This document shows positions 1,885 to 32,000 of a DNA stretch of 32,000 nucleotides, piece by piece (position 1 is the stretch's first letter; each line of letters starts with the position of its first letter). Under the pieces are notes generated by a model, which was given only the letters and a program-made list of their open reading frames with translations, did no database searches and was not told where the DNA came from. Location of the stretch: assembly GCA_963741095.1 (NCBI GenBank), contig CAVUGN010000011.1, positions 9,326 through 41,325 on the forward strand. The letters run 5' to 3'. This DNA comes from an uncultured Candidatus Micrarchaeota archaeon (GTDB lineage: Archaea > Micrarchaeota > Micrarchaeia > Micrarchaeales > Micrarchaeaceae). The translations under genes and the position numbers were made by a program.

Positions 1885-1957
1885 GGCCTTAGTGGTGTAA
1901 CGGCTCGCACGGAAGACTGTGGATCTTCTAGCCCGGGTCCGACTCCCGGCTAAGGCC
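1885..1957 (+). tRNA. tRNA-His (GUG)
   Basis: Cloverleaf folded by hand. It has an encoded G-1 (1885), acceptor 1886-1892/1950-1956 and D stem 1895-1898/1907-1910. The anticodon stem is 1912-1916/1924-1928 with loop CTGTGGA (GTG at 1919-1921), and the T stem is 1933-1937/1945-1949. C1957 can pair with G-1. CCA is not encoded. Confidence 0.85.
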
Positions 1958-2007
1958 CATTTACGCTAAGACGGGAACAGAATTGTACTAACCCATATTG
2001 CGGTAAT

Positions 2008-2613
2008 TTGATGGAATTCGAATTTGATAGTAAAAATTTAAAGTTCGATAAAGTGCTCTCTGAGTTAGATAAGCTCGTACTAGATTTTGTAAGCCTTCTG
2101 ACTCTTTCCAAGATCAAGTATGTGCTAGTTAGCGGTTATGTGGCAATCCTTTTAGGCAGAACCAGAACAACTGAAGACATAGATCTTTTTATAGAAAAAG
2201 TGGATATGTGGCCTTTTACTGAGTTCTTCAATTTGCTAGAAAAACACAACTATTGGGTAATAAATTCAGATTCATGCGAAGACGCATTCGATATGCTCAA
2301 CAGCGCACTGTCTATTAGAATAGCAAAAAAGGGCGATGCAGTACCAAATTTTGAAGTTAAGTTTGCAAAAAAAGACATAGATTTCCTATCTTTGAACAAC
2401 CCGCTTAAAGTTACCTTGAATAATCACAAGCTACTGATGTCCCCCCTGGAGATACAAATACCTTTCAAAATATACTTGGGGAGCGAAAAGGATATAGAGG
2501 ATGCAACACACATATATGAACTGTTCAAAGAAAAACTTGACAAAAAACTAATGGAAAATATCGCAAATAAACTGAAAGTAAAAGAAATGATGATAGAATA
2601 TGGAATGCTCTAA
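2008..2613 (+). CDS. Nucleotidyltransferase-fold protein (AbiEii/DUF6036-like minimal NTase)
   Basis: The motif VSGYVAILLGRTRTTEDIDLFI fits the G-x...R-x-T-x-D-I-D-L pattern of Pol-beta-superfamily NTases. It lies in an AT-rich islet next to tRNA-His. Confidence 0.45.
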   Translation: MMEFEFDSKNLKFDKVLSELDKLVLDFVSLLTLSKIKYVLVSGYVAILLGRTRTTEDIDLFIEKVDMWPFTEFFNLLEKHNYWVINSDSCEDAFDMLNSALSIRIAKKGDAVPNFEVKFAKKDIDFLSLNNPLKVTLNNHKLLMSPLEIQIPFKIYLGSEKDIEDATHIYELFKEKLDKKLMENIANKLKVKEMMIEYGML

Positions 2614-2839
2614 ACGTGATACAAAAGAAAGGCTAAATTTTGTCCGATTTTGGGCAGACTACGTTAAACACGCGCCGAACGACGTATGGTCAAAACAGCA
2701 GAATGTACTAATAAATTCTGTAATGAAATCTGCAAGCCAAGACGTTATATTGTACTTAAAAGTAAAAAAATCTGTAGCGGCTTCAATCAGAACGCTAAAT
2801 CGCTTATCAAAGGCCCAGTCAAAACATATCATTCCCTAA
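2600..2839 (+). CDS. Hypothetical small protein overlapping the NTase gene end
   Basis: 79-aa ORF with a 14-nt overlap with 2008..2613 and the same AT-rich composition. No motif recognised. Confidence 0.3.
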   Translation: MECSKRDTKERLNFVRFWADYVKHAPNDVWSKQQNVLINSVMKSASQDVILYLKVKKSVAASIRTLNRLSKAQSKHIIP

Positions 2840-2887
2840 TCCTGCTGAAGATGAAGCATAATTATAAGTATTATTTACCCCGATTCA

Positions 2888-3574
2888 ATGAACATGGCCT
2901 TCACACTTCGGACTCAAAATGAGCGCGTGCATAATGTGCGCCTTATTGCTTCCGACTGGAGCGGTGTGATAAGCGACGACAGGCGGCCGGTGTACGAATC
3001 GAACATGCGGTTGTTTGAAGCGCATGGGAAAACCCGCGTCCCTTTCGAAAAATGGCTGCCAGAGACGACGCTGACGCCAATAGAATCTTTTGCAAAGCAT
3101 GGAATCACTGGTGATCCGAAAACGCTCTTCGATGAGTACAGGAGCGCCTATGCGAAAGTGAAAAGCGAAGGGCTGAATCCTAAAGCGTACCCTGATTCGA
3201 AGACGGTACTGAAATTCCTATTCGACATCGGATTTCCCGTGGTCGTCATAAGCAGCCATCCGAGCGAGCATCTTATGGACGAGGCTTTGGAGTACGGCGT
3301 AAAGGGCTACATACGGTCATTCCTGGGGAATGTTAACGACAAAACGAGCGGGCTTTTGAGGGTCTGCCTCGGAATAGGCGAAAAACCCACCGATGCCATA
3401 TATCTTGGTGATACTGTTTACGACATCCGGGCAGCAAAGAAAGCCGGAGTGCATTCTGTCGGCGTGGCTACCGGCTATCATACTAAGGAAAGGCTAGTAG
3501 ATGAAAATCCAGACTTCGTAGTGGACTCATTGACAGAATTCCAGAATACGATCACCAAATTTTTGAGAAGATAG
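2888..3574 (+). CDS. HAD-superfamily hydrolase (phosphatase, PGP/Gph-like)
   Basis: HAD motifs occur in order: IASDWSGVISDD (motif I variant), VVVISSHP (motif II), K-x...GDTVYDIRAAKKAG (motifs III/IV). Confidence 0.75.
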   Translation: MNMAFTLRTQNERVHNVRLIASDWSGVISDDRRPVYESNMRLFEAHGKTRVPFEKWLPETTLTPIESFAKHGITGDPKTLFDEYRSAYAKVKSEGLNPKAYPDSKTVLKFLFDIGFPVVVISSHPSEHLMDEALEYGVKGYIRSFLGNVNDKTSGLLRVCLGIGEKPTDAIYLGDTVYDIRAAKKAGVHSVGVATGYHTKERLVDENPDFVVDSLTEFQNTITKFLRR

Positions 3575-22968: not shown

Positions 22969-23940
22969 TCAGGCCTTCTTCTTGATGAGTGCGAAGCCCG
23001 CCAGCATCGCCTCCAGCTGTATGCGCTCGTTCGCACCTTCTACTATCCTGAAATTGTATTCTCCCATGTCCTTTATCGCGCTGAGCTTCGTCTCGTTGTC
23101 AACGTCCATGTTCTGTACCTCCCTGTAGCACTGAGTCAGTATGTCCTCTGCGCTCATTCCATGCTTGAACATAAGGTTGTCCAGCTCGGTCCTCGCGCTC
23201 AGGAAGTCGCCGGTGAGCGATGACCTGAGCATAGCCATGACCTCCTTCGGCCTTGCCCTTGCTGCGACGTCGTATATGCTAGCTTCGGTGATCTTCTTGT
23301 TCTGCATCGCCGCGCTCTGCAGCACGTTCGTCACCTTCCTCAGGTCGCCGTCTCCCACATAAACGAGCGCGCTTATCACCTTCTCATCAAGCTCAAGGTT
23401 CTCGCCTTTTGCTATCCTGGTTATGTACTTCTCCATATCCTCCTCGCTCAGGGGCCTGAACCTGAAGACGACGCACCTGCTCTGTATCGGCTCTATGATC
23501 TTGCTGGCGTAGTTCGCGCTGAGTATGAACCTTGTTTCCGATGCGAACATCTCCATGGTTCTCCTGAGCGCATGCTGCGCGTCGGCGGTCAGCGCGTCAG
23601 CCTCATCAAGGAATATTATTTTTATCGGCACCTTTGCAACCGATATGGTTTTTGCGAACTCCTTCACGGCCCCTCTTATCACGTCTATTCCGCGCTCGTC
23701 GCTTGCGTTCAGCTCCTTCATCGCGCTGCCCAGGTTGTCCCCATAGAGGTCCCTTGCCATGGCAACTGCGCATGTGGTTTTTCCTATGCCTGCCGGTCCC
23801 GCGAATATCATGCTTGGGAAGTTGCCCCTCTCGACAAACGATCTGAGGCGATCGACGATCAGCTTCTGGCCTATGACCTCAGAAAGCCCTCTGGGTCTGT
23901 ATTTTTCGGTCCAGGGGAGATCCAAAAGCATTAGCATCAC
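22969..23940 (-). CDS. rfcS: Replication factor C small subunit
   Basis: PWTEKYRP, GPAGIGKTT, IIFLDEADALT, the SRC motif (IQSRCVVFRF) and a C-terminal collar domain. Confidence 0.92.
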   Translation of the reverse strand: MMLMLLDLPWTEKYRPRGLSEVIGQKLIVDRLRSFVERGNFPSMIFAGPAGIGKTTCAVAMARDLYGDNLGSAMKELNASDERGIDVIRGAVKEFAKTISVAKVPIKIIFLDEADALTADAQHALRRTMEMFASETRFILSANYASKIIEPIQSRCVVFRFRPLSEEDMEKYITRIAKGENLELDEKVISALVYVGDGDLRKVTNVLQSAAMQNKKITEASIYDVAARARPKEVMAMLRSSLTGDFLSARTELDNLMFKHGMSAEDILTQCYREVQNMDVDNETKLSAIKDMGEYNFRIVEGANERIQLEAMLAGFALIKKKA

Positions 23941-24015
23941 TATCTGTATTACTACTTTGGTGGAAGGTATTTATTAGCTTTTCCGTGAATACTAATCCTG
24001 TAACGTCTTCTCAAG

Positions 24016-24091
24016 GGGGAGCTACGCTAACCTGGCAGACCATCAGCCTTGGGCGCTGACAATCGGAGTTCAAATCTCCGGCTCCCCACCA
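24016..24091 (+). tRNA. tRNA-Pro (UGG) with encoded CCA; integration target
   Basis: Acceptor GGGGAGC 24016-24022 / GCTCCCC 24081-24087. The anticodon stem is TCAGC/GCTGA with loop CTTGGGC (TGG at 24050-24052). The T arm is CGGAG-TTCAAAT-CTCCG (24064-24080), followed by A24088 and CCA 24089-24091. The D stem pairs poorly in every register I tried, which lowers confidence. Confidence 0.7.
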
Positions 24092-24210
24092 GGAAAATTA
24101 TCGACGACAAAATTCGCCTTTTCGACGTATGTTGGAGATGTGGACTGTATTCAACAAAACTACATGTAAATCTGGTATAGTTCCAGGTATAGTCTTGAGT
24201 ATAGCTTATA

Positions 24211-24471
24211 TTATTTCCTATACTCATAATGGCTCACGGCCTTGCCGTACCTGCTACTTATGTTCTTTGAGATGTAATCAGCGACATCTAACGGCTCCTT
24301 GCCGTCCGTGAACCTGGCCTTGACCACGAATCCGCAGTCGCCTTCGGTCAGTAGGACCTCCTTGACGGACTCGAACATCATCAGCTTCTCTGCGATCCCG
24401 CCGGCGTCTGCGTTCTCTTTTGGCCTTACGAAATAGAGCCCGTACATCGCGCCTATTCTCTTTTTACCCAT
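24211..24471 (-). CDS. Stand-alone RAM (Lrp/AsnC ligand-binding) domain-like protein, 86 aa
   Basis: LYFVRPKENADAGGIAEKLMMFESVKEVLLTEGDCGFVVKARF fits the beta-alpha-beta-beta-alpha-beta RAM pattern (compare xVxxVxxVTGxYDxxxxV). It is nucleotide-identical to 29420..29680. Confidence 0.6.
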   Translation of the reverse strand: MGKKRIGAMYGLYFVRPKENADAGGIAEKLMMFESVKEVLLTEGDCGFVVKARFTDGKEPLDVADYISKNISSRYGKAVSHYEYRK

Positions 24472-24486
24472 GTCAATCCACCATAA

Positions 24487-24627
24487 TCATAATCGGTCTA
24501 TATCAAGCAACTTGACGAACACGCTGTGGCATCTGTCGCATTCCTCGATCACGAACCTGCCGTTCACCACCCGCTTGCACACCAGCCTTCCTGTTCTGCA
24601 CCTGCTGCATGCAACGCCGCCGTTCAT
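24487..24627 (-). CDS. 46-aa zinc-ribbon protein (not in the ORF track)
   Basis: Hand translation gives MNGGVACSRCRTGRLVCKRVVNGRFVIEECDRCHSVFVKLLDIDRL, with CxxC...CxxC. Its ATG overlaps the upstream stop (ATGA at 24624-24627). It is conserved as a 47-aa version in copy 2. Confidence 0.6.
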   Translation of the reverse strand: MNGGVACSRCRTGRLVCKRVVNGRFVIEECDRCHSVFVKLLDIDRL

Positions 24628-24893
24628 CCCTCGATCACCTTACCGTATTCACCGTCCAGTCCTTTCGATATGTACGCGGCAGCGTCCTTGGGTTCAGCAC
24701 CGACGAAAAACTTCACCTTCGCCAGGAACACGCCCTTGTTTTCCATCAAGTTGACTGCCTTCACGCGCTTTAGGGCAAGGAGCCTTTCCGCAAGACGTTC
24801 GCTGACACCGCTCTTCGAATTCCCGAAGTAGAGACGGTGCCAAACCGCATGGCTCGCGCTAACCCTTGTTATTTTTCCACCCGTATTACACAC
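24624..24893 (-). CDS. Stand-alone RAM-domain-like protein, 89 aa (paralogue of the 86-aa protein)
   Basis: RLYFGNSKSGVSERLAERLLALKRVKAVNLMENKGVFLAKVKF has the same pattern as the 86-aa protein. It has a GTG start and differs from copy 2 at 9 aa. Confidence 0.55.
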   Translation of the reverse strand: MCNTGGKITRVSASHAVWHRLYFGNSKSGVSERLAERLLALKRVKAVNLMENKGVFLAKVKFFVGAEPKDAAAYISKGLDGEYGKVIEG

Positions 24894-24939
24894 CCACTTA
24901 TTTGCTTACTTTTACATCATCCTGACAAACATGAAAATA

Positions 24940-25140
24940 TCATCTGGACGCTAAAACAGCCCGCGCGGATCCGGATCCGTCAAGCAGCATAACCGACCTT
25001 CCGGTCCTTTCCAGCTCGCACGCGTTAATGTGCCAAAGATATGCGACTGGATTCTCATGCTCCATACCGCACATCCAGCACTGGTATGCATTATCGTGCC
25101 CTCCCAAAAAGATATCTTTTATTCTTGTTCCCATGCCCAT
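24940..25140 (-). CDS. C2HC (C2H2-like) zinc-finger protein, 66 aa
   Basis: YQCWMCGMEHENPVAYLWHINAC gives C-x2-C-x12-H-x3-C, the classical zinc-finger spacing. It is the first gene of the micro-operon. Confidence 0.55.
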   Translation of the reverse strand: MGMGTRIKDIFLGGHDNAYQCWMCGMEHENPVAYLWHINACELERTGRSVMLLDGSGSARAVLASR

Positions 25141-25265
25141 TCTACCACCCCATCAATCATGAGGGTAGGGGGTTGCACCGCGGAAGCATGGTGATAATGT
25201 GGAGGACGAGCTTGCGCTGATCCGTAGAAAATTCTTACTTCCACCCCTGTACAACCTACACACCC
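25141..25265 (-). promoter_or_regulatory. Conserved 125-nt non-coding leader of the micro-operon (candidate structured RNA)
   Basis: By eye there are only 5 substitutions versus 30350-30474, so it is better conserved than the adjacent zinc-finger CDS. There is no ORF. Nested complementary segments and a GCAA-capped hairpin are possible on the minus-strand transcript. Confidence 0.35.
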
Positions 25266-25413
25266 ATATGATATTATGAACTTTGTTGTATATATAAGCA
25301 GCCTCGGTTTTTAAGCTGAAGAAACTATAAAAATTGCTATTTTTGTTTAATATTTTTCCAGTTATTCAAATATCATATACTGTATAATTAGGAATATAGA
25401 GGAGATTAGTAAA

Positions 25414-25423
25414 GTATAAATAT
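25414..25423 (+). promoter_or_regulatory. TATA box for the double-Lrp gene
   Basis: gtATAAATATc is centred ~28 nt upstream of ATG 25446. The same ATAAATATC core sits ~26 nt upstream of the paralogue start (30617-30625). Confidence 0.4.
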
Positions 25424-25445
25424 CTGGCTCTATACAATATTATAT

Positions 25446-26867
25446 ATGAAAGAGATACCTTTTGAGGCAAACAAGGAGCTCGAGCGCCTCAAGAAAGAGT
25501 ACAAAGCGTACCTTTACGTCAGGATCATAGACGGAAAGTTCTATGTCTACAAAGGGAGCTCAATTTGGGATAAAGAAACTAAGAAGGTGAGGGGGCTTAC
25601 CGAGTATCTAGGACGGATAGATGAAAACGGGAAGTTCATAAAGAAGATTTCTAACAAAAAAAAGATCCCGATACAGACGCTCGTTCAAGGAACTGCTCCG
25701 CAAGCCATCCAAACGCTGGTCGACCAGTCTGAGATAAAATTATTGAGAATCCTGAGCATGAATGCAAAGGCAGATTTGTCTTTTCTCGGAAAGAAGTTTC
25801 TAGGGATCAACTCTTCCGCAACATTCTACAAAGTAAGGCAGCTGAAGGAGAGATATGGCATAAAGGGTATTGCTGAAATAGATGTTACGAAGCTTGGCTA
25901 CACTGACTATATAGCTTTTGTGAAATTCGAGGGCGACAAGCCAAGCGCGGATAACATAAGGAAGGCCACTTTGGACGAAAGCCAGGTGCAACTAGTGCTT
26001 GCTACCAACGGCGAATATGACTTAATAATATACTTCTTAGCCAAGGATAATTTCGATGCATCGGAATTCATATTCAATTTGAGGTACAAGGAGCATCTGA
26101 AGACATGTATATCACAATGGTATTTCTCTCCCATTGACATATGTTATAACTTTATTCCATTAAGAGACCAGTTTTTCGAGCTGATGAAAGAAAAAGTATG
26201 GGTAAAGAGCAGGGAAAGTCAACGCAGATTGGAGGGGCAGCTCACCATCAAGGAGTACAATATACTAAGGGAATTGAACAGAAATGGTGTCGCAAAGTTC
26301 TCAGAAATGGACAAGAAACACGGGCTGGGCGGGGAAGAAACCGCATACATCTACGAAAAGCTTATTGAGAGAGGTATACTCAAGAGGATGACAGTAAGTC
26401 TTCAGAAAATACCTTTGCAATATAACGCAGTAATCATAATGGGTGTGGTTGACAACAATGGCTTCAGGCGGACTAGAGACAGGCTGCTGATGGATGTAAT
26501 AGAGGAGAACGGTACGCCTATCAACAAGTATTCTGTAATGGGAAACATAGGAAACCCTGATGGCGTCATGTTTATAATGCCGATAACTCCGAACAACAGG
26601 CTCGATGTATTCGAAAGTGAGTTCAAGGAGAGGATAAAAGGTGTGGCACTTAGAACTCTCATAGTCACTGACGTGCTCGTTGGTTCATTATGTTACAGGA
26701 AGTTTGACAACGCAAAGTCTAGGCAATACCGGGCACTGCGGATGGAGGGCAATACAGAGCTATCATTAGCCGATGTAGACTACGATGAAACAGTTAGAAG
26801 GAAGCAAGTTATCAAGAAAGGTGAGGATACAATAGAAGAACTACTCGCCAATAATGAAAATATATAA
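25446..26867 (+). CDS. Tandem Lrp/AsnC-like protein: N-terminal basic hairpin motif plus two HTH+RAM modules
   Basis: Module 1 is EIKLLRILSMNAKADLSFLGKKFLGINSSATFYKVRQLKERYGI (HTH), then YTDYIAFVKFEG...VQLVLATNGEYDLIIYF (RAM). Module 2 is EYNILRELNRNGVAKFSEM...YIYEKLIERGIL (HTH), then YNAVIIMGVVD...VMGNIGNPDGVMFIM (RAM). The N-terminus reads YLYVRIIDGKFYVYKGSSIWDKETKKVRGLTEYLGRI. Confidence 0.6.
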   Translation: MKEIPFEANKELERLKKEYKAYLYVRIIDGKFYVYKGSSIWDKETKKVRGLTEYLGRIDENGKFIKKISNKKKIPIQTLVQGTAPQAIQTLVDQSEIKLLRILSMNAKADLSFLGKKFLGINSSATFYKVRQLKERYGIKGIAEIDVTKLGYTDYIAFVKFEGDKPSADNIRKATLDESQVQLVLATNGEYDLIIYFLAKDNFDASEFIFNLRYKEHLKTCISQWYFSPIDICYNFIPLRDQFFELMKEKVWVKSRESQRRLEGQLTIKEYNILRELNRNGVAKFSEMDKKHGLGGEETAYIYEKLIERGILKRMTVSLQKIPLQYNAVIIMGVVDNNGFRRTRDRLLMDVIEENGTPINKYSVMGNIGNPDGVMFIMPITPNNRLDVFESEFKERIKGVALRTLIVTDVLVGSLCYRKFDNAKSRQYRALRMEGNTELSLADVDYDETVRRKQVIKKGEDTIEELLANNENI

Positions 26868-27030
26868 TGCAGGAATAGAATGCAATAACTACTGATGTAT
26901 CTTACAGAAATTAGCTAATTAAACTACCCTCCTGGTCCTTCCATATCTTCACCTGTCCAAACATCTCTGAAAAGGCTTAAATAGCTTGTGTCCGTTTGAA
27001 ATGGGCCAGCGCGAATGCTCGTATAAACAA

Positions 27031-27056
27031 CATCGAACCACGTCGGGCGATGTTGT
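27031..27056 (+). repeat. Cassette-boundary repeat, copy D (short, degenerate)
   Basis: CATCGAACCACGTCGGGCGATGTTGT aligns with the 5' part of copies A-C. It can form an AACATCG/CGATGTT hairpin. Confidence 0.5.
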
Positions 27057-27119
27057 ATAATTGTCTTCATCACGGTGCATAGATAAGTATTTATACTTAT
27101 TCTACATAATATACTTAAT

Positions 27120-27350
27120 GTGATGAAGATGACAAACATGACACTGGCCCTGCCGGAAGCGCTCACTGAGATAATGAAACGGCACAAGGACATAAAATGG
27201 AGCGAGGTGGCCCGCGAGGCCATCTGGGACAAGGCGAGGAAGCTGGAGCTCATGGACAAGATCCTCTCCAAGAGCGAATTGACCGAAAAGGACGCGTTGG
27301 CGATAGGCGCGAAGATAAACGAAGCCGTAGCTAAGAGGCATGGGTTATAA
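27120..27350 (+). CDS. vapB: Ribbon-helix-helix antitoxin (VapB-like)
   Basis: MTLALPEALTEIMKRH...WSEVAREAI is a CopG/RHH-type N-terminus. It overlaps the PIN gene by 11 nt. The ATG at 27123 is an alternative start. Confidence 0.65.
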   Translation: MMKMTNMTLALPEALTEIMKRHKDIKWSEVAREAIWDKARKLELMDKILSKSELTEKDALAIGAKINEAVAKRHGL

Positions 27351-27759
27351 CGTGATCCTGGTCGTGGACGCCAATGTGGTGATTGCCGCATTGGTAAAGA
27401 ATGGCAAAGTGCGTGAGATCCTGCTTAGCGACAAGTTCAAGTTCGTCGCACCTGATTTCGTGAAAGAGGAGACTCTGAAATACCTCGATCTAATAAAACA
27501 AAAGTCGGGACTTGCGAAAGACGACCTGGACCTGCTCATAACCCTACTGTTCCAAGAGATAGAAACCATACCCAGAAGCGAGTATCAATCGCAACTTCCC
27601 AAAGCCGAAAGGATGATAAAAAATGATGTAAAGGATGCACCATACGTTGCATGCTACCTGGCGCTGAAATGCGACGGGATCTGGACGAACGACTCGGACT
27701 ATGATGGAAAACCAGAACTGAAAGTGTTCAAAACAGAATACCTTCTGAAATTATTGTAA
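27340..27759 (+). CDS. vapC: PIN-domain toxin (VapC-like)
   Basis: LVVDANVVIAALV (first Asp), FVKEETLKYL (Glu), DAPYVACYLAL (Asp) and WTNDSDY (Asp) are the four acidic PIN residues, in order. Confidence 0.75.
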   Translation: MGYNVILVVDANVVIAALVKNGKVREILLSDKFKFVAPDFVKEETLKYLDLIKQKSGLAKDDLDLLITLLFQEIETIPRSEYQSQLPKAERMIKNDVKDAPYVACYLALKCDGIWTNDSDYDGKPELKVFKTEYLLKLL

Positions 27760-27780
27760 TCCACAACCTTTAGACTTGGG

Positions 27781-27854
27781 CATCGTCGAACCATGTTGAA
27801 CCACGTCGAACGACGTCGTTTCCCAATTGCACTTTTACGACGAAGAACCGGCTC
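27781..27854 (+). repeat. Cassette-boundary repeat, copy A (full length, degenerate att-like end)
   Basis: The sequence is CATCGTCGAACCATGTTGAACCACGTCGAACGACGTCGTTTCCCAATTGCACTTTTACGACGAAGAACCGGCTC. It shares both halves with copy C, including the terminal CCGGCTC of the att core. Confidence 0.7.
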
Positions 27855-27865
27855 GCGTCGTGCTA

Positions 27866-28186
27866 CTAGATCTCCAAACCCTCTTTGAGAGCGGCACTGA
27901 CCAAAGTGATACCTTTTGCCTCCCTCTCGAACTCATTTTTGGTGTAGCTTAAGAAATCCACGGGATAGTCTATCCCCTGCGATACGTGCCATTCCAAAAG
28001 GAGCTTGCTGATCAGCTTCTTTACGGGTTTCCTGATCACAACCAGAAGGTCCACATCGCTGTCCTTCTTTGCCTCGCCTCTTGCCGAAGAACCGAAGAGT
28101 ATGATCCGCTCTATTCCGTACGGCTTGGCGACGCTCTCCTTGAAGCCTTTTATCGTTTTTATCAATTGAGGATTGACCTTACCCAT
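27866..28186 (-). CDS. Minimal nucleotidyltransferase (MNT) of a HEPN/MNT pair
   Basis: ILFGSSARGEAKKDSDVDLLVV is the GSxxRG...DxD NTase motif. It overlaps the HEPN gene by 25 nt. Confidence 0.8.
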   Translation of the reverse strand: MGKVNPQLIKTIKGFKESVAKPYGIERIILFGSSARGEAKKDSDVDLLVVIRKPVKKLISKLLLEWHVSQGIDYPVDFLSYTKNEFEREAKGITLVSAALKEGLEI

Positions 28187-28584
28187 TCCAAAACACCTTC
28201 ACACTTTTCAATCACGTCCTTTGCTTCATCTTCCGAAACGGACCTTGTTACTGGATAGCGCGTATCCACGTAATACTCGGTAAGATCGGCACAATAATTA
28301 ACTATCTCTGCAGTTGCCTTAATGCTTTGGGCGAGCTTCACGAGGTCATGCGTCCTGTCAAATCGGCTCAACTTCTCTATCTGTGCAGCTTTCAACGCCT
28401 TCTCCGCTACCTGCTGGGCATAAAAGGATGCGTCCTTGAGCCTCTCGCTTTCATAGAGAAGCTTTGCAGTCACGAGATTGTCCTCGGCTTCTTTTATCCA
28501 CACTCGTGCATCATCTTTCATGTCCTCATAAGAATTTGCCTTAAAAACCTTAATAATGTTTGCAGTTGGGCCACATTCATCCAA
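28162..28584 (-). CDS. HEPN-domain protein of a HEPN/MNT pair
   Basis: AKLLYESERLKDASFYAQQVAEKALKAAQ, THDLVKLA and YYVDTRYP (the R-x4-6-H-type HEPN region). The likely true start is ATG 28521. Confidence 0.75.
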   Translation of the reverse strand: MDECGPTANIIKVFKANSYEDMKDDARVWIKEAEDNLVTAKLLYESERLKDASFYAQQVAEKALKAAQIEKLSRFDRTHDLVKLAQSIKATAEIVNYCADLTEYYVDTRYPVTRSVSEDEAKDVIEKCEGVLEWVRSILN

Positions 28585-28654
28585 AATATTTGAATATGTG
28601 TTTTTTTTAAGTGAGTCTTATTCCTTCGTAATGACTCCTAACTCGAAACACAAA

Positions 28655-28696
28655 CATCGTCGAACCACTTCGAACACCGTCGTTTCCCAATTGCAC
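28655..28696 (+). repeat. Cassette-boundary repeat, copy B (5' half only)
   Basis: CATCGTCGAACCACTTCGAACACCGTCGTTTCCCAATTGCAC matches copy A except for the 9-nt internal duplication in A. It diverges after TTGCAC. Confidence 0.7.
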
Positions 28697-28746
28697 CGCC
28701 AAAGTACCACACCATAAGAAATATAAAGCAGAAATGCACAATATTA

Positions 28747-28995
28747 GTGATAAAGATGGAAATGGAAGTGTACGGATTCAAAGCCAAGATAACCAAGGAA
28801 GGTAAGTATCTCATAGGCGAGATACCGGAGCTGCATGTAGCTGATCAGGCCAAGACCCTGAAGGAACTCGAGAGCGAACTCAAGGATGCGGTAAGCCTAG
28901 TTGTAAATCTTATCCTGGACAATCCAAAAGATGCAGCCAAGAACTTCGGTAACGGTGTCATAAGAAAGCTGAGCGTTCAGGTAATCCGCGCATAG
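28747..28995 (+). CDS. hicB: HicB-like antitoxin
   Basis: YGFKAKITKEGKYLIGEIPELHVADQAKTLKELESELKDAV fits the HicB/UPF0150 N-terminal fold pattern. It lies immediately upstream of hicA. The probable start is ATG 28756. Confidence 0.6.
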   Translation: MIKMEMEVYGFKAKITKEGKYLIGEIPELHVADQAKTLKELESELKDAVSLVVNLILDNPKDAAKNFGNGVIRKLSVQVIRA

Positions 28996-29003
28996 GTGTA
29001 TCC

Positions 29004-29225
29004 ATGTCGCGGTTACGCCCGCTGAAAAGTCCTCTCCTCATAAAGGTGCTGCAGAAATACTACGGCTACAACGCACGCTCTGGAAGCGGCAGGCATATAG
29101 TTTTGCAGGACTCGGATGGTCATACGACTGTGATCCAGCTTAACATGGAACTCGGCAAAGGCATCCTGAAGAAGATACTAAATCAAACTGATTTGAAGTG
29201 GAAAGAAATAGAGAAGTACCTCTAA
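29004..29225 (+). CDS. hicA: HicA-like mRNA interferase toxin
   Basis: LIKVLQKYYGYNARSGSGRHIVLQDSDGHTTVIQLNMELGKGILKKILNQTDL follows the HicA pattern (GF..x..GSH...P.H..l..G.l..Il). Confidence 0.7.
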   Translation: MSRLRPLKSPLLIKVLQKYYGYNARSGSGRHIVLQDSDGHTTVIQLNMELGKGILKKILNQTDLKWKEIEKYL

Positions 29226-29229
29226 ATGA

Positions 29230-29300
29230 CATCGTCGAACCACGTCGACCAACGATGTTTCTCAATCACACTTTTACGTCGAAGGACCGGCTCCCCACCA
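29230..29300 (+). repeat. Cassette-boundary repeat, copy C, fused to the duplicated att core
   Basis: CATCGTCGAACCACGTCGACCAACGATGTTTCTCAATCACACTTTTACGTCGAAGGACCGGCTCCCCACCA. It starts 5 nt after the hicA stop, and its last 14 nt equal the tRNA-Pro 3' end. Confidence 0.75.
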
Positions 29301-29419
29301 GGAAAATTATCGACGACAAAATTCGTCTTTTCGATGGATGTTGGAGATGTGGACTGTATTCAACAAAACTACATGTAAATCTGGTATAGTTCCAGGTATA
29401 GTCTTGAGTATAGCCTATA

Positions 29420-29680
29420 TTATTTCCTATACTCATAATGGCTCACGGCCTTGCCGTACCTGCTACTTATGTTCTTTGAGATGTAATCAGCGACATCTAA
29501 CGGCTCCTTGCCGTCCGTGAACCTGGCCTTGACCACGAATCCGCAGTCGCCTTCGGTCAGTAGGACCTCCTTGACGGACTCGAACATCATCAGCTTCTCT
29601 GCGATCCCGCCGGCGTCTGCGTTCTCTTTTGGCCTTACGAAATAGAGCCCGTACATCGCGCCTATTCTCTTTTTACCCAT
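29420..29680 (-). CDS. Stand-alone RAM-domain-like protein, 86 aa (copy 2)
   Basis: The protein is identical to 24211..24471. Confidence 0.6.
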   Translation of the reverse strand: MGKKRIGAMYGLYFVRPKENADAGGIAEKLMMFESVKEVLLTEGDCGFVVKARFTDGKEPLDVADYISKNISSRYGKAVSHYEYRK

Positions 29681-29695
29681 GTCAATCCACCATAA

Positions 29696-29839
29696 TCATA
29701 ATCGGTCTATATCAAGCAACTTGACGAACACGCTGTGGCATCTGTCACACTCCTCGATCACGAACCTGCCGTTCACCACACGCTTGCATACCAGCCTTCC
29801 TGTTCTGCACCTACTGCATGCAACTCCCTCGCTGTTCAT
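29696..29839 (-). CDS. 47-aa zinc-ribbon protein (copy 2, not in the ORF track)
   Basis: Hand translation gives MNSEGVACSRCRTGRLVCKRVVNGRFVIEECDRCHSVFVKLLDIDRL. It has the same ATGA overlap with the upstream gene. Confidence 0.6.
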   Translation of the reverse strand: MNSEGVACSRCRTGRLVCKRVVNGRFVIEECDRCHSVFVKLLDIDRL

Positions 29840-30105
29840 CCCTCGATCACCGTTCCGTAGTCGCCGTCCAGTCCTTTCGATATGTACGCGGTAGCGTCCT
29901 TGGGTTCAGCACCGACGAAAAACTTCACCTTCGCCAGGAACACGCCCTTGTTTTCCATCAGGTTGACTGCCTTCACGCGCTTCAGTGCAAGCAGCCTGTC
30001 TGCAAGGCGCTCGCTGACACGGCTCTTTGGATTCCCGAAGTAGAACCGGTGCCAAACAGCATGGCTCGCGCTGACACTTGTTACTTTTCCACCCGTATTA
30101 CACAC
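29836..30105 (-). CDS. Stand-alone RAM-domain-like protein, 89 aa (copy 2)
   Basis: It differs at 9 of 89 aa from 24624..24893. Confidence 0.55.
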   Translation of the reverse strand: MCNTGGKVTSVSASHAVWHRFYFGNPKSRVSERLADRLLALKRVKAVNLMENKGVFLAKVKFFVGAEPKDATAYISKGLDGDYGTVIEG

Positions 30106-30151
30106 CCACTTCTCTTGCTTTCTTTACCTCATTCTGACAAACATGAAGACA

Positions 30152-30349
30152 TCATCTGGATGCGGAAACAGCCCGCATTCCTAACTCGCCAAGCAGCATC
30201 ACCGGCCTGCCGGTCCTTTCCAACTCGCAGGCGTTTATGTGCCACAGATATGCAACTGGATTCTCATGCTCCATTCCGCACATCCAGCACTGGTACATAT
30301 TATCGTGCCCTCCAAAGAAGATATCCTTTATCCTTGTTCCCATGCCCAT
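30152..30349 (-). CDS. C2HC zinc-finger protein, 65 aa (copy 2)
   Basis: The zinc-finger core is identical to copy 1. The C-terminal ~15 aa diverge, with a 1-codon indel. Confidence 0.55.
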   Translation of the reverse strand: MGMGTRIKDIFFGGHDNMYQCWMCGMEHENPVAYLWHINACELERTGRPVMLLGELGMRAVSASR

Positions 30350-30646
30350 TCTACCATCCTATCAATCATAAGGGTAGGGGGTTGCACCGCGGAAGCATGG
30401 TGATAATGTGGAGGACGAGCTTGCGCTAATCCATAGAAAATTCTTACTTCCACCCCTGTACAACCTACACACCCGTATAGTATCGCGTCATATCCGGTAT
30501 TTATTAGATACAGAAGACAGGGCGGTAGTATTGATAAAGCGAAAACATTAAAACATATAAATTTATCATTAAGCGCTCAATCTTCAATTGTTATACATTA
30601 AGGATTTAACAAAAGGAATAAATATCCTCTTATTTGATATAACTAC

Positions 30647-32000
30647 ATGCAAGACGTTCCACCACAGATATCTGCTGCTTTCGAGAAAGTGAAGAAGACG
30701 TACCCGTTCTATGTCTCGCTGAAGAGGATATACGGAAAATATTACGTATACAAAGTGAAGGTCGTCTGGGACCGACTAACCAAAAAGACAAAAACAAATT
30801 CTGAGTACTTGGGCCGGATAACCAGCGATGGGAAATATAAAAAGAAGAGCATCACACCGAATGATTACCTGAGAAAGGCCGAGGCACTCATCGCTTCCAA
30901 AGGTGGGAAGATAACGTGGGACGGAATTGAGAAAGTCCGGGGTGCAAACGAGCAGATTAAAGAGGAACAGATCGAGGAAACTGTTGCCGACGAATTGGAA
31001 ACGAAGATACTGACTATATTGAGTATGAACGGCCGCGCGTCGATACCTTTCATAAGCAAGATGGTTGGTCTTAGCAATGCTACAACAGATTATCACGTAA
31101 AGAAGATCGAAGAGAAATACGGCATCAGATATTTTCCAGAGATAGACGTAGACAAATTAGGTTATGCCAGCTTTATGATATCCATAAAATTTGAAGATGA
31201 GGTTCCGAGTGCAGAAGAGATTAAAAGAGAGCTTAGCAAATTTCCTGGAGTACAACTTGCAATGGTAACTCATGGTAGATATGACCTAATAATTCATTTT
31301 GTAACCGGGACCGAATATATGCCAAATAGTTATGGATGGGCATCTCAGAATGAAATATATGACCTCCAAAATAATGCTTTTAGAGCAAACAAGGCAAAAT
31401 GGTACGTGTCAACGTTTTACAGAACATATGGATGCGTACCGTTGAGAAACGAATTTTTTGATATGATGAAGAAAATAGTGTGGGAAAAAAGCAAAGAGAG
31501 CAGGAGACCTAAGCCAAATCAACTTCTTCCTAGGGAGTATTTCGTACTAAAAGAACTAAACTTAGATGGTAGGTGCGAATTCACAGAAATAGACAATAGA
31601 TGCAATTTTGATAGGGGTAGATCAGATTACACCTATAAAAGATTAGTTGAAAATAAAACAATAAAACGCATCACGTTGACAATGCAGAAACCTCCGGTAA
31701 AGTATGTGGCAATAATCTATATGGATTTTATAAAAAGAGATGAGTTTTCAAAGAGCAGAGTGAATCTTTTATTAGACATAATAGAGCGGCGAACACAAAT
31801 AAACAAATACGCACTTGTTGGCGATGCGAGCATTCCATATGGTGGATTCTTCATACTGCCGATAACTCAAGATGGGCTACTAGAAAAAGTCACCGAGCAA
31901 TTAAAGAGCATAAGCGGCACAAACGTATACGCTCTTGTTGCAAGCGAGATAGTCTTAGGTAGCCTTTGTTATAGATTATTTGATAACGCATACTCAAGCC
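30647..32000 (+). CDS. Tandem Lrp/AsnC-like protein, divergent paralogue of 25446..26867 (3' end beyond the window)
   Basis: It is not in the ORF track because no stop is reached. Hand translation from ATG 30647 stays open to nt 32000. It has the same N-terminal motif (YGKYYVYKVKVVWDRLTKKTKTNSEYLGRI), two HTH+RAM modules (ILTILSMNGRASIPF...; VTHGRYDLIIHF; EYFVLKELNLDGRCEF...) and the conserved LGSLCYRLFDNA near the end. Confidence 0.65.
   Translation, partial: MQDVPPQISAAFEKVKKTYPFYVSLKRIYGKYYVYKVKVVWDRLTKKTKTNSEYLGRITSDGKYKKKSITPNDYLRKAEALIASKGGKITWDGIEKVRGANEQIKEEQIEETVADELETKILTILSMNGRASIPFISKMVGLSNATTDYHVKKIEEKYGIRYFPEIDVDKLGYASFMISIKFEDEVPSAEEIKRELSKFPGVQLAMVTHGRYDLIIHFVTGTEYMPNSYGWASQNEIYDLQNNAFRANKAKWYVSTFYRTYGCVPLRNEFFDMMKKIVWEKSKESRRPKPNQLLPREYFVLKELNLDGRCEFTEIDNRCNFDRGRSDYTYKRLVENKTIKRITLTMQKPPVKYVAIIYMDFIKRDEFSKSRVNLLLDIIERRTQINKYALVGDASIPYGGFFILPITQDGLLEKVTEQLKSISGTNVYALVASEIVLGSLCYRLFDNAYSS

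Follow-up and report, generated by a model that had tools for sequence, protein, structure and literature searches.

Organization of the locus

The stretch analyzed here, referred to as the window throughout, comprises 32,000 nucleotides (nt) of contig CAVUGN010000011.1 (assembly GCA_963741095.1) from an uncultured Candidatus Micrarchaeota archaeon. Its subject is a module of five genes: an operon of four small genes on the minus strand (s66, s89, s46 and s86, named after the length of their products in amino acids (aa)) and, transcribed divergently from it, the gene for a 473-aa protein (big473) that is predicted to contain two Lrp-type modules. In the source genome the module is the backbone of tandem units that are bounded by repeats resembling an attachment site (att), probably derive from an element and lie at a tRNA-Pro gene. 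An earlier interpretation of this DNA (the sequence-only reading) had delimited the five genes, and the open reading frame (ORF) listing of the window returned all of them at exactly those positions. The module itself encodes no enzyme, as had been stated. A public contig of 574 kb, which is 99.9% identical to positions 24164-32000 of the window, adds 15 kb to it (the public extension in the following).

The claim that the five-gene layout occurs twice was borne out: the same layout is repeated 5.2 kb downstream of the first copy, with a second small operon (29420-30349) and a second big gene, that of big498 (Table 1). The DNA of 24078-25269 is 93.4% identical to that of 29287-30478; the big proteins of the two copies are only 36% identical, and this is therefore not a simple duplication. 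A tblastn search found no further paralogues elsewhere in the window, the left 24 kb of which is ordinary chromosome. The genes of the small operon had been described as translationally coupled by ATGA overlaps. This holds for the junction between the s89 stop and the s46 start, with one such overlap per copy, and not for the other two junctions, where 15 and 46 nt separate the genes. The ratio of nonsynonymous to synonymous substitution rates (dN/dS) of the small genes, compared from unit to unit and with their orthologues on other contigs, is mostly 0.04-0.3; the four small genes are therefore real, under purifying selection, and no chance ORFs.

Table 1. Positions of the module, its second copy and the surrounding features, counted from the first nucleotide of the window.
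Feature	Position	Strand	Remarks
tRNA-Pro(TGG)	24016-24091	+	ARAGORN, Rfam
s86, 86-aa stand-alone RAM-like protein	24211-24471	-	last gene of small operon
s46, 46-aa four-cysteine zinc-ribbon-like protein	24487-24627	-	ORF
s89, 89-aa RAM-like protein	24624-24893	-	ORF; GTG start
s66, 66-aa C2HC zinc-finger-like protein	24940-25140	-	first gene of small operon
Conserved GC-rich leader/promoter-proximal region of small operon	25141-25269	-	shared by the four units, L021 and L024
AT-rich segment, putative operator region	25270-25445		GC 0.24; differs between units
big473, 473-aa double-Lrp protein	25446-26867	+	faces small operon
Conserved 56-nt segment after each big gene	26936-26991 (region 26930-27056)	+	recurrent breakpoint beyond 26991
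Junction repeat R1	27027-27056	+	
Cargo cassette 1: RHH antitoxin (76 aa) and PIN_2 toxin (139 aa)	27120-27759	+	Pfam PIN_2, 5e-26
Junction repeat R2	27786-27854	+	three tandem 10-nt TCGAACNACG-like units; tail ending CCGGCTC
Cargo cassette 2: nucleotidyltransferase (106 aa) and HEPN (140 aa)	27866-28584	-	Pfam NTP_transf_2, 7e-15; HEPN, 2e-27
Junction repeat R3	28654-28718	+	
Cargo cassette 3: HicB-like (82 aa) and HicA toxin (73 aa)	28747-29225	+	Pfam HicA_toxin, 4e-7; weak UPF0150
Junction repeat R4	29229-29286	+	followed by second att core (29287-29300), the boundary of units 1 and 2
Second small operon	29420-29680 (86 aa); 29696-29839 (47 aa); 29836-30105 (89 aa); 30152-30349 (65 aa)	-	
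big498, second big paralogue	30647-32000	+	cut by window end; 498 aa in public extension; 36% identical to big473

The fused double-Lrp protein

The alignment-based AlphaFold2 (AF2) model of big473 has a predicted local distance difference test score (pLDDT) of 85 and a predicted template modelling score (pTM) of 0.73. In this model a domain of a helix and a three-stranded beta-sheet (residues 1-66) and a disordered linker precede two consecutive modules, each of a helix-turn-helix (HTH) and a RAM domain (HTH1+RAM1, 94-235; HTH2+RAM2, 268-412), after which comes a C-terminal helix. Both RAM domains have the order beta-alpha-beta-beta-alpha-beta, and the architecture of Lrp/AsnC proteins, a winged HTH followed by a RAM domain, is thus predicted twice in one chain. 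With Foldseek the first match in the PDB was NirDL (4ch7; E 3e-12, 358 columns, identity 14%, root-mean-square deviation (rmsd) 12 A), the sole fused double-Lrp fold among the matches listed, and it was followed by some thirty single Lrp/AsnC/FFRP regulators (E ~1e-5, target TM-scores 0.65-0.75). The NCBIfam models that matched included archaeal LysM (4e-12, in two stretches) and LrpA, and several homologues of big473 have precomputed HTH_AsnC-type or HTH_24 matches. Model, Foldseek and LysM matches agree with the earlier statement that the big protein holds two complete Lrp/AsnC modules of HTH and RAM, and at the level of the predicted structure big473 is shown to consist of two Lrp-like HTH+RAM modules that are covalently fused, preceded by an additional domain.

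For this N-terminal domain the searches gave no PDB-sequence match, and in Pfam stray matches only, well below the cut-offs. Its profile retrieves 787 representative clusters, and nearly all non-fragments among the 150 listed are 440-500 aa long; this makes big473 a member of a sizeable, uncharacterised family, the architecture of which is fixed. The genome matches of the family (n = 3) were two Micrarchaeota metagenome-assembled genomes (MAGs) and one unclassified archaeon, so that the only ones named to phylum are Micrarchaeota MAGs. Searches for relatives of the big protein in IMG/VR (pattern scan), in phage or plasmid collections (tblastn), in PHROGs and in PADLOC gave none, and the viral-structure library BFVD contains only one single-module Lrp-like protein and no double-Lrp protein. 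On these grounds a viral or plasmid origin was rejected.

The match to NirDL, which is the best one to a solved structure, brings up the reading that the double-Lrp protein is catalytic, in the manner of the siroheme decarboxylases (NirDL, AhbA/B), and that the small RAM proteins are extra subunits of it. We regard this as very improbable: the match reflects the shared architecture, NirDL being the one fused double-Lrp protein listed and aligning at low identity and with a large rmsd; the profiles point to LysM, LrpA and AsnC, and none of the six NCBIfam families at E ≤ 1 is a decarboxylase; and no genes of haem or tetrapyrrole metabolism lie in the window or near any of the related loci that were examined.

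The small proteins

The 86- and 89-aa proteins had been read as RAM-like, which was confirmed by a profile search of PDB sequences, by the modelled fold and by Foldseek. The top 13 matches of the s86-family profile are all Lrp/AsnC-family proteins, aligned over their RAM region (E 2e-3 to 0.17, the first ones 2e-3 to 7e-3), and include the stand-alone RAM proteins 2zbc, 2djw, 2e1a (DM1) and 2cvi. The AF2 model of s86 (pLDDT 73) has the beta-alpha-beta-beta-alpha-beta order, its top Foldseek matches are RAM domains (E 2e-3 to 5e-3), and hhalign aligns the s86 family, weakly, to RAM1 of the big family. The proteins s86 and s89 are paralogous, with 31-35% identity of s89 to the s86 family and 40-43% over 54-68 aa in tblastn. 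In size (about 75-95 aa), in having one RAM fold and in their kinship to Lrp-type RAM domains, they resemble the stand-alone RAM proteins (demi-FFRPs) of the class of DM1, STS042 and TTHA0845. The dN/dS is 0.06 for s86 (against L021) and 0.13-0.41, mostly 0.2-0.3, for s89.

The other two proteins had been put forward as zinc modules, and the ligand patterns of both turned out to be invariant. In s66, C21, C24, H37 and C41 are invariant in 6 sequences, giving a CX2C-X12-H-X3-C pattern with the spacing of C2H2/C2HC fingers, and the invariant core also comprises Y.CWMCGM.H.NPVA.LWHINACELERTG; its dN/dS is mostly 0.16-0.34, and it has no match in Pfam, PHROG or PADLOC. In s46, C7, C10, C30 and C33 are invariant and form two CXXC motifs, like the knuckles of a zinc ribbon, which lie about 15-20 residues apart; its dN/dS is 0.04-0.17, and its matches to zinc-ribbon families of Pfam are weak (E 0.05-0.13). 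Taken over the module, the domain calls of the sequence-only reading are right at the level of fold and motif.

The region between the divergent genes

The two transcription units had been described as separated by an AT-rich region of ~180 nt. Such a region exists next to the big gene (176 nt, GC 0.24) and differs between the copies; the whole intergenic region is longer, however, with 305 nt, and the remaining 129 nt on the side of s66 have a GC content of 0.51 and are conserved between the copies. A TATA-like TGTATATATA at 25289-25298 (minus strand), ~150 nt upstream of s66, would give the small operon a conserved leader of ~125 nt. On the other side, a TATA-like AAAGTATAAATAT at 25411-25423 is found ~24 nt before the ATG of the big gene, and this short distance suggests that the mRNA of the big gene is leaderless. 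A long-range stem is predicted in the s66 leader, which received no support from covariation (RNAalifold covariation term +0.56 kcal/mol, unfavourable) or from the z-score (-1.05); a structured leader RNA was therefore rejected, and the conserved leader could be a protein-binding region instead. The only known RNA element that Rfam found in 23900-32000 was the tRNA.

Conservation of the gene linkage

Searches for linkage were seeded with s86 and s66 and were in this way independent of the big protein. The families that the two seeds retrieved are small (9 and 5 clusters, respectively), and the double-Lrp gene proved to be adjacent in every retrieved locus with sufficient contig reach: in L015-L022 and L024-L029, according to a census of the DNA with hidden Markov models (HMM), and in the ERZ1426817 contig, which was judged by gene calls alone. 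Linkage between double-Lrp, zinc finger and RAM genes was found in at least eight other contigs and in three arrangements. The divergent five-gene layout of the window recurs in L021 (one full and one partial unit in tandem) and in the ERZ1426817 contig, where the module is followed by tRNA-editing, DCD and Thy1 genes. In L024-L026 the layout is likewise divergent, with a double-Lrp protein of 352 aa that lacks the N-terminal domain (23% identical to big473, E 4e-15). In L027-L029, which represent ordinary chromosomal contexts, the genes for the double-Lrp protein, a zinc finger, a RAM protein and then another CxxC protein are co-directional. A two-gene core, the big gene facing an s86-like gene, is present in L002, L006 and L022.

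The sequence-only reading had made its case dependent on the five families occurring together outside this locus, and the combination was indeed found elsewhere (L021 and the ERZ1426817 contig). The literature searched contains no description of this gene combination, and it has no counterpart in the phage, plasmid, defence and viral-structure libraries, so that the earlier view of it as no recognised, described system was upheld. As the linkage recurs across contigs and arrangements, a functional link between the double-Lrp protein, the zinc finger and the RAM protein is likely. The regulator family is broader than the module, and its members are mostly single-copy chromosomal genes among housekeeping genes; the small genes, on the other hand, are always accompanied by such a regulator in the loci reached.

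Two further genes were observed in the co-directional loci. The double-Lrp gene of L027 and L029 faces a gene (L027, 2429-3688; L029, 4332-5606) whose product of ~420 aa is a multi-pass membrane protein ending in a soluble domain, and the RAM gene is followed by a gene for a distinct 63-65 aa CxxC...CxxC protein (L027, 5468-5665; L029, 7410-7601).

The tandem array at tRNA-Pro

The units that contain the module are delimited by an att-like core, CCGGCTCCCCACCA, which corresponds to the last 14 nt of tRNA-Pro (24078-24091) and is repeated at every unit boundary, with exact copies at 24078, at 29287 and, in the public extension, at 36680; direct repeats of the tRNA 3' end at both ends of the inserted DNA are characteristic of tRNA-integrating elements. 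No att core was detected beyond the last unit. The units measure 5-7 kb. Unit 1 consists of the small operon, big473 and the RHH-PIN, NT-HEPN and HicBA cassettes, followed by the 14-nt core; unit 2 of the small operon, big498, a lone s66-like gene facing big459, the same three cassettes and the core; and unit 3 of the small operon, big470 and a tyrosine recombinase, after which APH, glycosyltransferase and IS66 genes are found. Each big gene is followed by the conserved 56-nt segment, beyond which the content varies by unit or strain: R1 with toxin-antitoxin (TA) cassettes, the recombinase, or an S66 peptidase. The antitoxin of cassette 1 is annotated as RHH_12 on an identical gene in L008.

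The junction repeats R1-R4 are related to each other, are 30-60 nt long and hold one to three 10-nt TCGAACNACG units in an iteron-like fashion; the TCGAACNACG-like pattern has 5 matches, with 0.13 expected. R2 and R4 terminate in CCGGCTC, the sequence with which the att core begins (7 nt), and the repeat beside each core runs into that core at its end. Compared with shuffled sequence, R1 folds better (z ~ -3) and R2-R4 do not. A reading of the TA cassettes as an integron was considered and rejected, given the poor hairpins and the lack of an IntI gene beside the cassettes.

Genes for an integrase, an excisionase or a replication protein are absent from the units within the window. The only recombinase is that of unit 3 (L016, 6613-7359; window-equivalent ~39679-40461, past the window end), and it is not an intact integrase: the N-terminal domain is missing, the match begins at position 32 of the 172 of the Pfam catalytic-domain model, roughly at the place at which the first catalytic Arg box would be expected, and it is closely preceded by stop codons. 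The missing N-terminal part was sought beside the att cores and within the R repeats, and an SSV-type split integrase was rejected because of misfits in strand and frame and of upstream stops. The recombinase also has a C-terminal extension that is zinc-ribbon-like (CxxC...CxxC) and a predicted helical tail. The locus had been called element-borne from the sequence, and it does resemble an island: units in tandem are arrayed at tRNA-Pro, repeats of the att type bound them, and TA cargo and the remnant of an integrase are present.

Two observations from the surroundings are added here. A 66-aa ORF at 24027-24227 (minus strand), antisense to the 3' half of tRNA-Pro, recurs at 29266-29436; it was considered as the N-terminal fragment of a split integrase and is probably spurious. 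Far to the left, tRNA-His (1886-1958) is followed by a kilobase of low GC content (0.375 for the region 1886-3000), in which an ORF of 201 aa (2008-2613) without a Pfam match may be another small insertion.

Divergence and variation of the units

Identity between the units drops the farther a gene lies from the att core: the three units have s86 proteins that are 100% identical, the s46, s89 and s66 proteins are 79-100% identical (dS 0.07-0.55) and the big proteins 32-40%, evenly across their domains. The small-gene module as a whole is 93-100% identical between units. The decay of identity away from the core points to recombination or gene conversion that is concentrated at the end next to the core. 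Each big paralogue is more similar to proteins of other metagenomes than to the paralogues beside it; big441 (L019, 11564-12889), for instance, is 58% identical to P0004 (L009, 8001-9335) from the metagenome of another study, which is encoded by a single-copy gene between FtsZ and ribosomal-protein genes. A near-identical backbone with anciently diverged regulators calls for recombination or independent acquisition, not recent duplication alone, and a conserved small-gene module with deeply divergent regulators fits units that each have their own regulator specificity.

The array is polymorphic in unit number and cargo among the samples of one study. In L019 an additional unit, with big441, adjoins unit 1 on its tRNA side; a Peptidase_S66 gene replaces the three TA cassettes in L020; and in L015 and L017 a shorter array is joined to a flank with prephenate dehydratase, the small operon being truncated after the zinc ribbon. 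L008, a contig from another sample, is 99.7% identical to 25873-28658 of the window and, upstream of a point inside big473 (L008 10047, window 25873), switches to unrelated genes (nitroreductase, peptidase S58 and DUF2268); the switch is due either to a genuine rearrangement or to a chimeric assembly.

The sequence-only reading had taken the module for a switch that controls the maintenance or excision of an element. In such an explanation each unit is, or was, an integrative element at tRNA-Pro, the regulator and the small operon would be a CI/Cro-like divergent switch for its excision or maintenance, and the fast-diverging regulator and the variable operator region beside it would provide hetero-immunity and let several units reside together. 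The exact tRNA 3'-end repeats that bound the units, the TA cargo, the recombinase remnant in the third unit and the variation in unit number and cargo between samples, including the extra unit of L019, are all in keeping with it, as is the combination of a conserved backbone with a variable regulator and variable promoter-distal DNA, which is the mosaic pattern of phage immunity regions. However, the units in the window have no integrase, excisionase or replication protein, the sole recombinase lacks its N-terminal domain and has no att core after it, and homologous recombination between the 1.2-kb repeats (93-99% identical) can explain the gain and loss of units. Moreover, module and regulator family occur elsewhere in ordinary chromosomal contexts, the more distant versions (L027, L029) are co-directional instead of divergent, and no relatives were found in the viral-contig, phage and plasmid collections, nor any double-Lrp protein in the viral-structure library. 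We consider this explanation unlikely. Somewhat more doubtful still is the extended version of it, in which the array would be a living platform of small, non-autonomous integrative units, with interchangeable double-Lrp regulators as unit-specific determinants of immunity or specificity and with cassettes that are swapped at the iteron-like repeats; if true, this would be an undescribed type of control and cassette system of archaeal mobile elements. The strain-variable tandem array at tRNA-Pro gives a rare view of island dynamics in genomes of this kind.

A proposed sensing unit of the Lrp/FFRP type

The reading that we prefer, and to which we assign about equal chances of being right and wrong in its entirety, is that the module is a transcriptional sensing unit of the Lrp/FFRP type, including the docking of RAM proteins and the zinc proteins as adaptors. 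It would have arisen on the chromosome of a small group of archaea, probably Micrarchaeota/DPANN-like, in which it is conserved. Lrp proteins bind imperfect palindromes of 13-17 bp as dimers, form higher assemblies through their RAM domains and respond to effectors, and divergent, autoregulated Lrp genes are on record (PMC2995911). By this precedent, the fused pseudo-dimer with its two non-identical HTHs would recognise an asymmetric site within the AT-rich intergenic stretch that differs from unit to unit, and the big protein would autoregulate its putatively leaderless promoter and control the small operon that it faces. The s86 and s89 proteins would form a RAM dimer that docks onto the RAM pair of the regulator, like DM1 with FL11, and this docking would change the assembly state or the ligand response of the regulator; zinc finger and zinc ribbon might join this complex as small adaptors for nucleic acids or proteins.

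The components of this reading are not equally probable. That the big protein is a regulator is more likely than the reading as a whole. Hetero-assembly between RAM domains is less likely than the whole, given that the regulators diverge and the small proteins stay almost the same. Hetero-oligomerisation and ligand gating are proposed by analogy with FL11/DM1 only (PMC2995911).

Several results weigh against the sensing unit. All Pfam and NCBIfam matches across the module are under the curated cut-offs, and big473 misses them with 15.5 against 25 bits for Pfam AsnC_trans_reg and 46 against 180 bits for NCBIfam LysM. The model of s86 is of moderate confidence, and other ferredoxin-like folds score near the RAM domains. 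Six loci of the big family have no small partners within 6-8 kb and sit amid housekeeping genes (Nop, FtsZ, ribosomal protein, MCM). Small RAM proteins that are near-identical across units with ~35%-identical regulators are a poor fit to a co-evolving RAM-RAM interface. A repeated operator motif was not demonstrated in the AT-rich region, where inverted repeats occur but the search for repeats gave only short matches of a kind typical of AT-rich DNA, and the adaptor or accessory roles of the zinc proteins are guesses.

In another rival reading the big protein would be an ordinary transcription factor, possibly a metabolite-sensing one, and the small operon a mere target of it, coding for instance for small stress, metal or nucleic-acid-binding proteins that form no complex with the regulator. 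Genes of Lrp-type regulators often lie beside their targets (PMC2995911), the almost invariant small proteins next to diverging regulators would be as expected, and the double-Lrp gene of L027 and L029 also faces the large membrane protein. Yet stand-alone RAM domains are modules for oligomerisation and ligands, and the RAM-only proteins belong to the same superfamily as the RAM domains of the regulator, which makes interaction the simpler explanation of the persistent linkage, and this linkage outlasts changes in gene order and orientation. We judge a regulator with a mere target to be improbable, to the same degree as the immunity or maintenance switch, and retain the sensing unit as our preferred interpretation.

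Comparison with known systems

Phage CI/Cro switches have in common with the module the divergent promoters across a short AT-rich control region, and their mosaic immunity regions are comparable in that the regulator and the adjacent control DNA are the most variable parts of otherwise near-identical units. The folds are unrelated, however, no lytic or excision genes lie downstream here, and the module's distant versions are chromosomal, with co-directional genes. With the archaeal integrative elements that target tRNA genes the array shares the tRNA 3'-end repeats, the tandem units, a recombinase catalytic domain and cargo and copy number that vary between strains. It differs from them in the units of 5-7 kb without an integrase of their own, in the truncated recombinase with no core beyond it and in the misfit to the SSV-type geometry. 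Chromosomal integron arrays also contain short TA cassettes that are bounded by related repeats of 30-60 nt and differ between strains, but here an IntI-type integrase by an attI site is lacking and the repeats are weak hairpins that consist partly of 10-nt tandem iterons; a report on archaeal integrons makes no mention of Micrarchaeota (PMC9668308).

NirDL and the AhbA-AhbB pair (4ch7, 4czd), with two Lrp/AsnC-like modules fused or paired, provide the only parallel to the fused architecture. Those proteins are enzymes of haem and haem d1 synthesis, whereas big473 has no haem context, is 14% identical, carries an extra N-terminal domain and has small partners.

The closest known system is FL11/DM1 of Pyrococcus, in which FL11, a full-length FFRP, and the RAM-only protein DM1 form a hetero-octamer in vitro (PMC2995911). 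The fold of HTH and RAM and the existence of separate RAM-only proteins of 75-90 aa are shared. The documented hetero-octamer and the sensing of amino acids or metabolites through RAM interfaces may have their counterparts in the present module. The module differs furthermore in that a single chain combines two non-identical HTH+RAM modules with a further domain at the N-terminus and a tail at the C-terminus, in a similarity to the curated Lrp models that stays below threshold, and in the linkage of two RAM-only paralogues to the regulator and to two zinc proteins, which FL11/DM1 is not described to have. The gene combination is undescribed and constitutes a new form of Lrp/FFRP regulation, the function of which we infer. 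Its regulators belong to a sizeable, uncharacterised family of hundreds of 50%-identity clusters, in which a fused double-Lrp protein is joined to a novel N-terminal domain. Archaea commonly have stand-alone RAM proteins, whose role in physiology has been termed unclear (PMC2995911). The two RAM-only genes that are kept beside a RAM-containing regulator across lineages and gene orders represent a natural case, and the module is a concrete system in which to ask whether RAM-only proteins modulate Lrp-type regulators.

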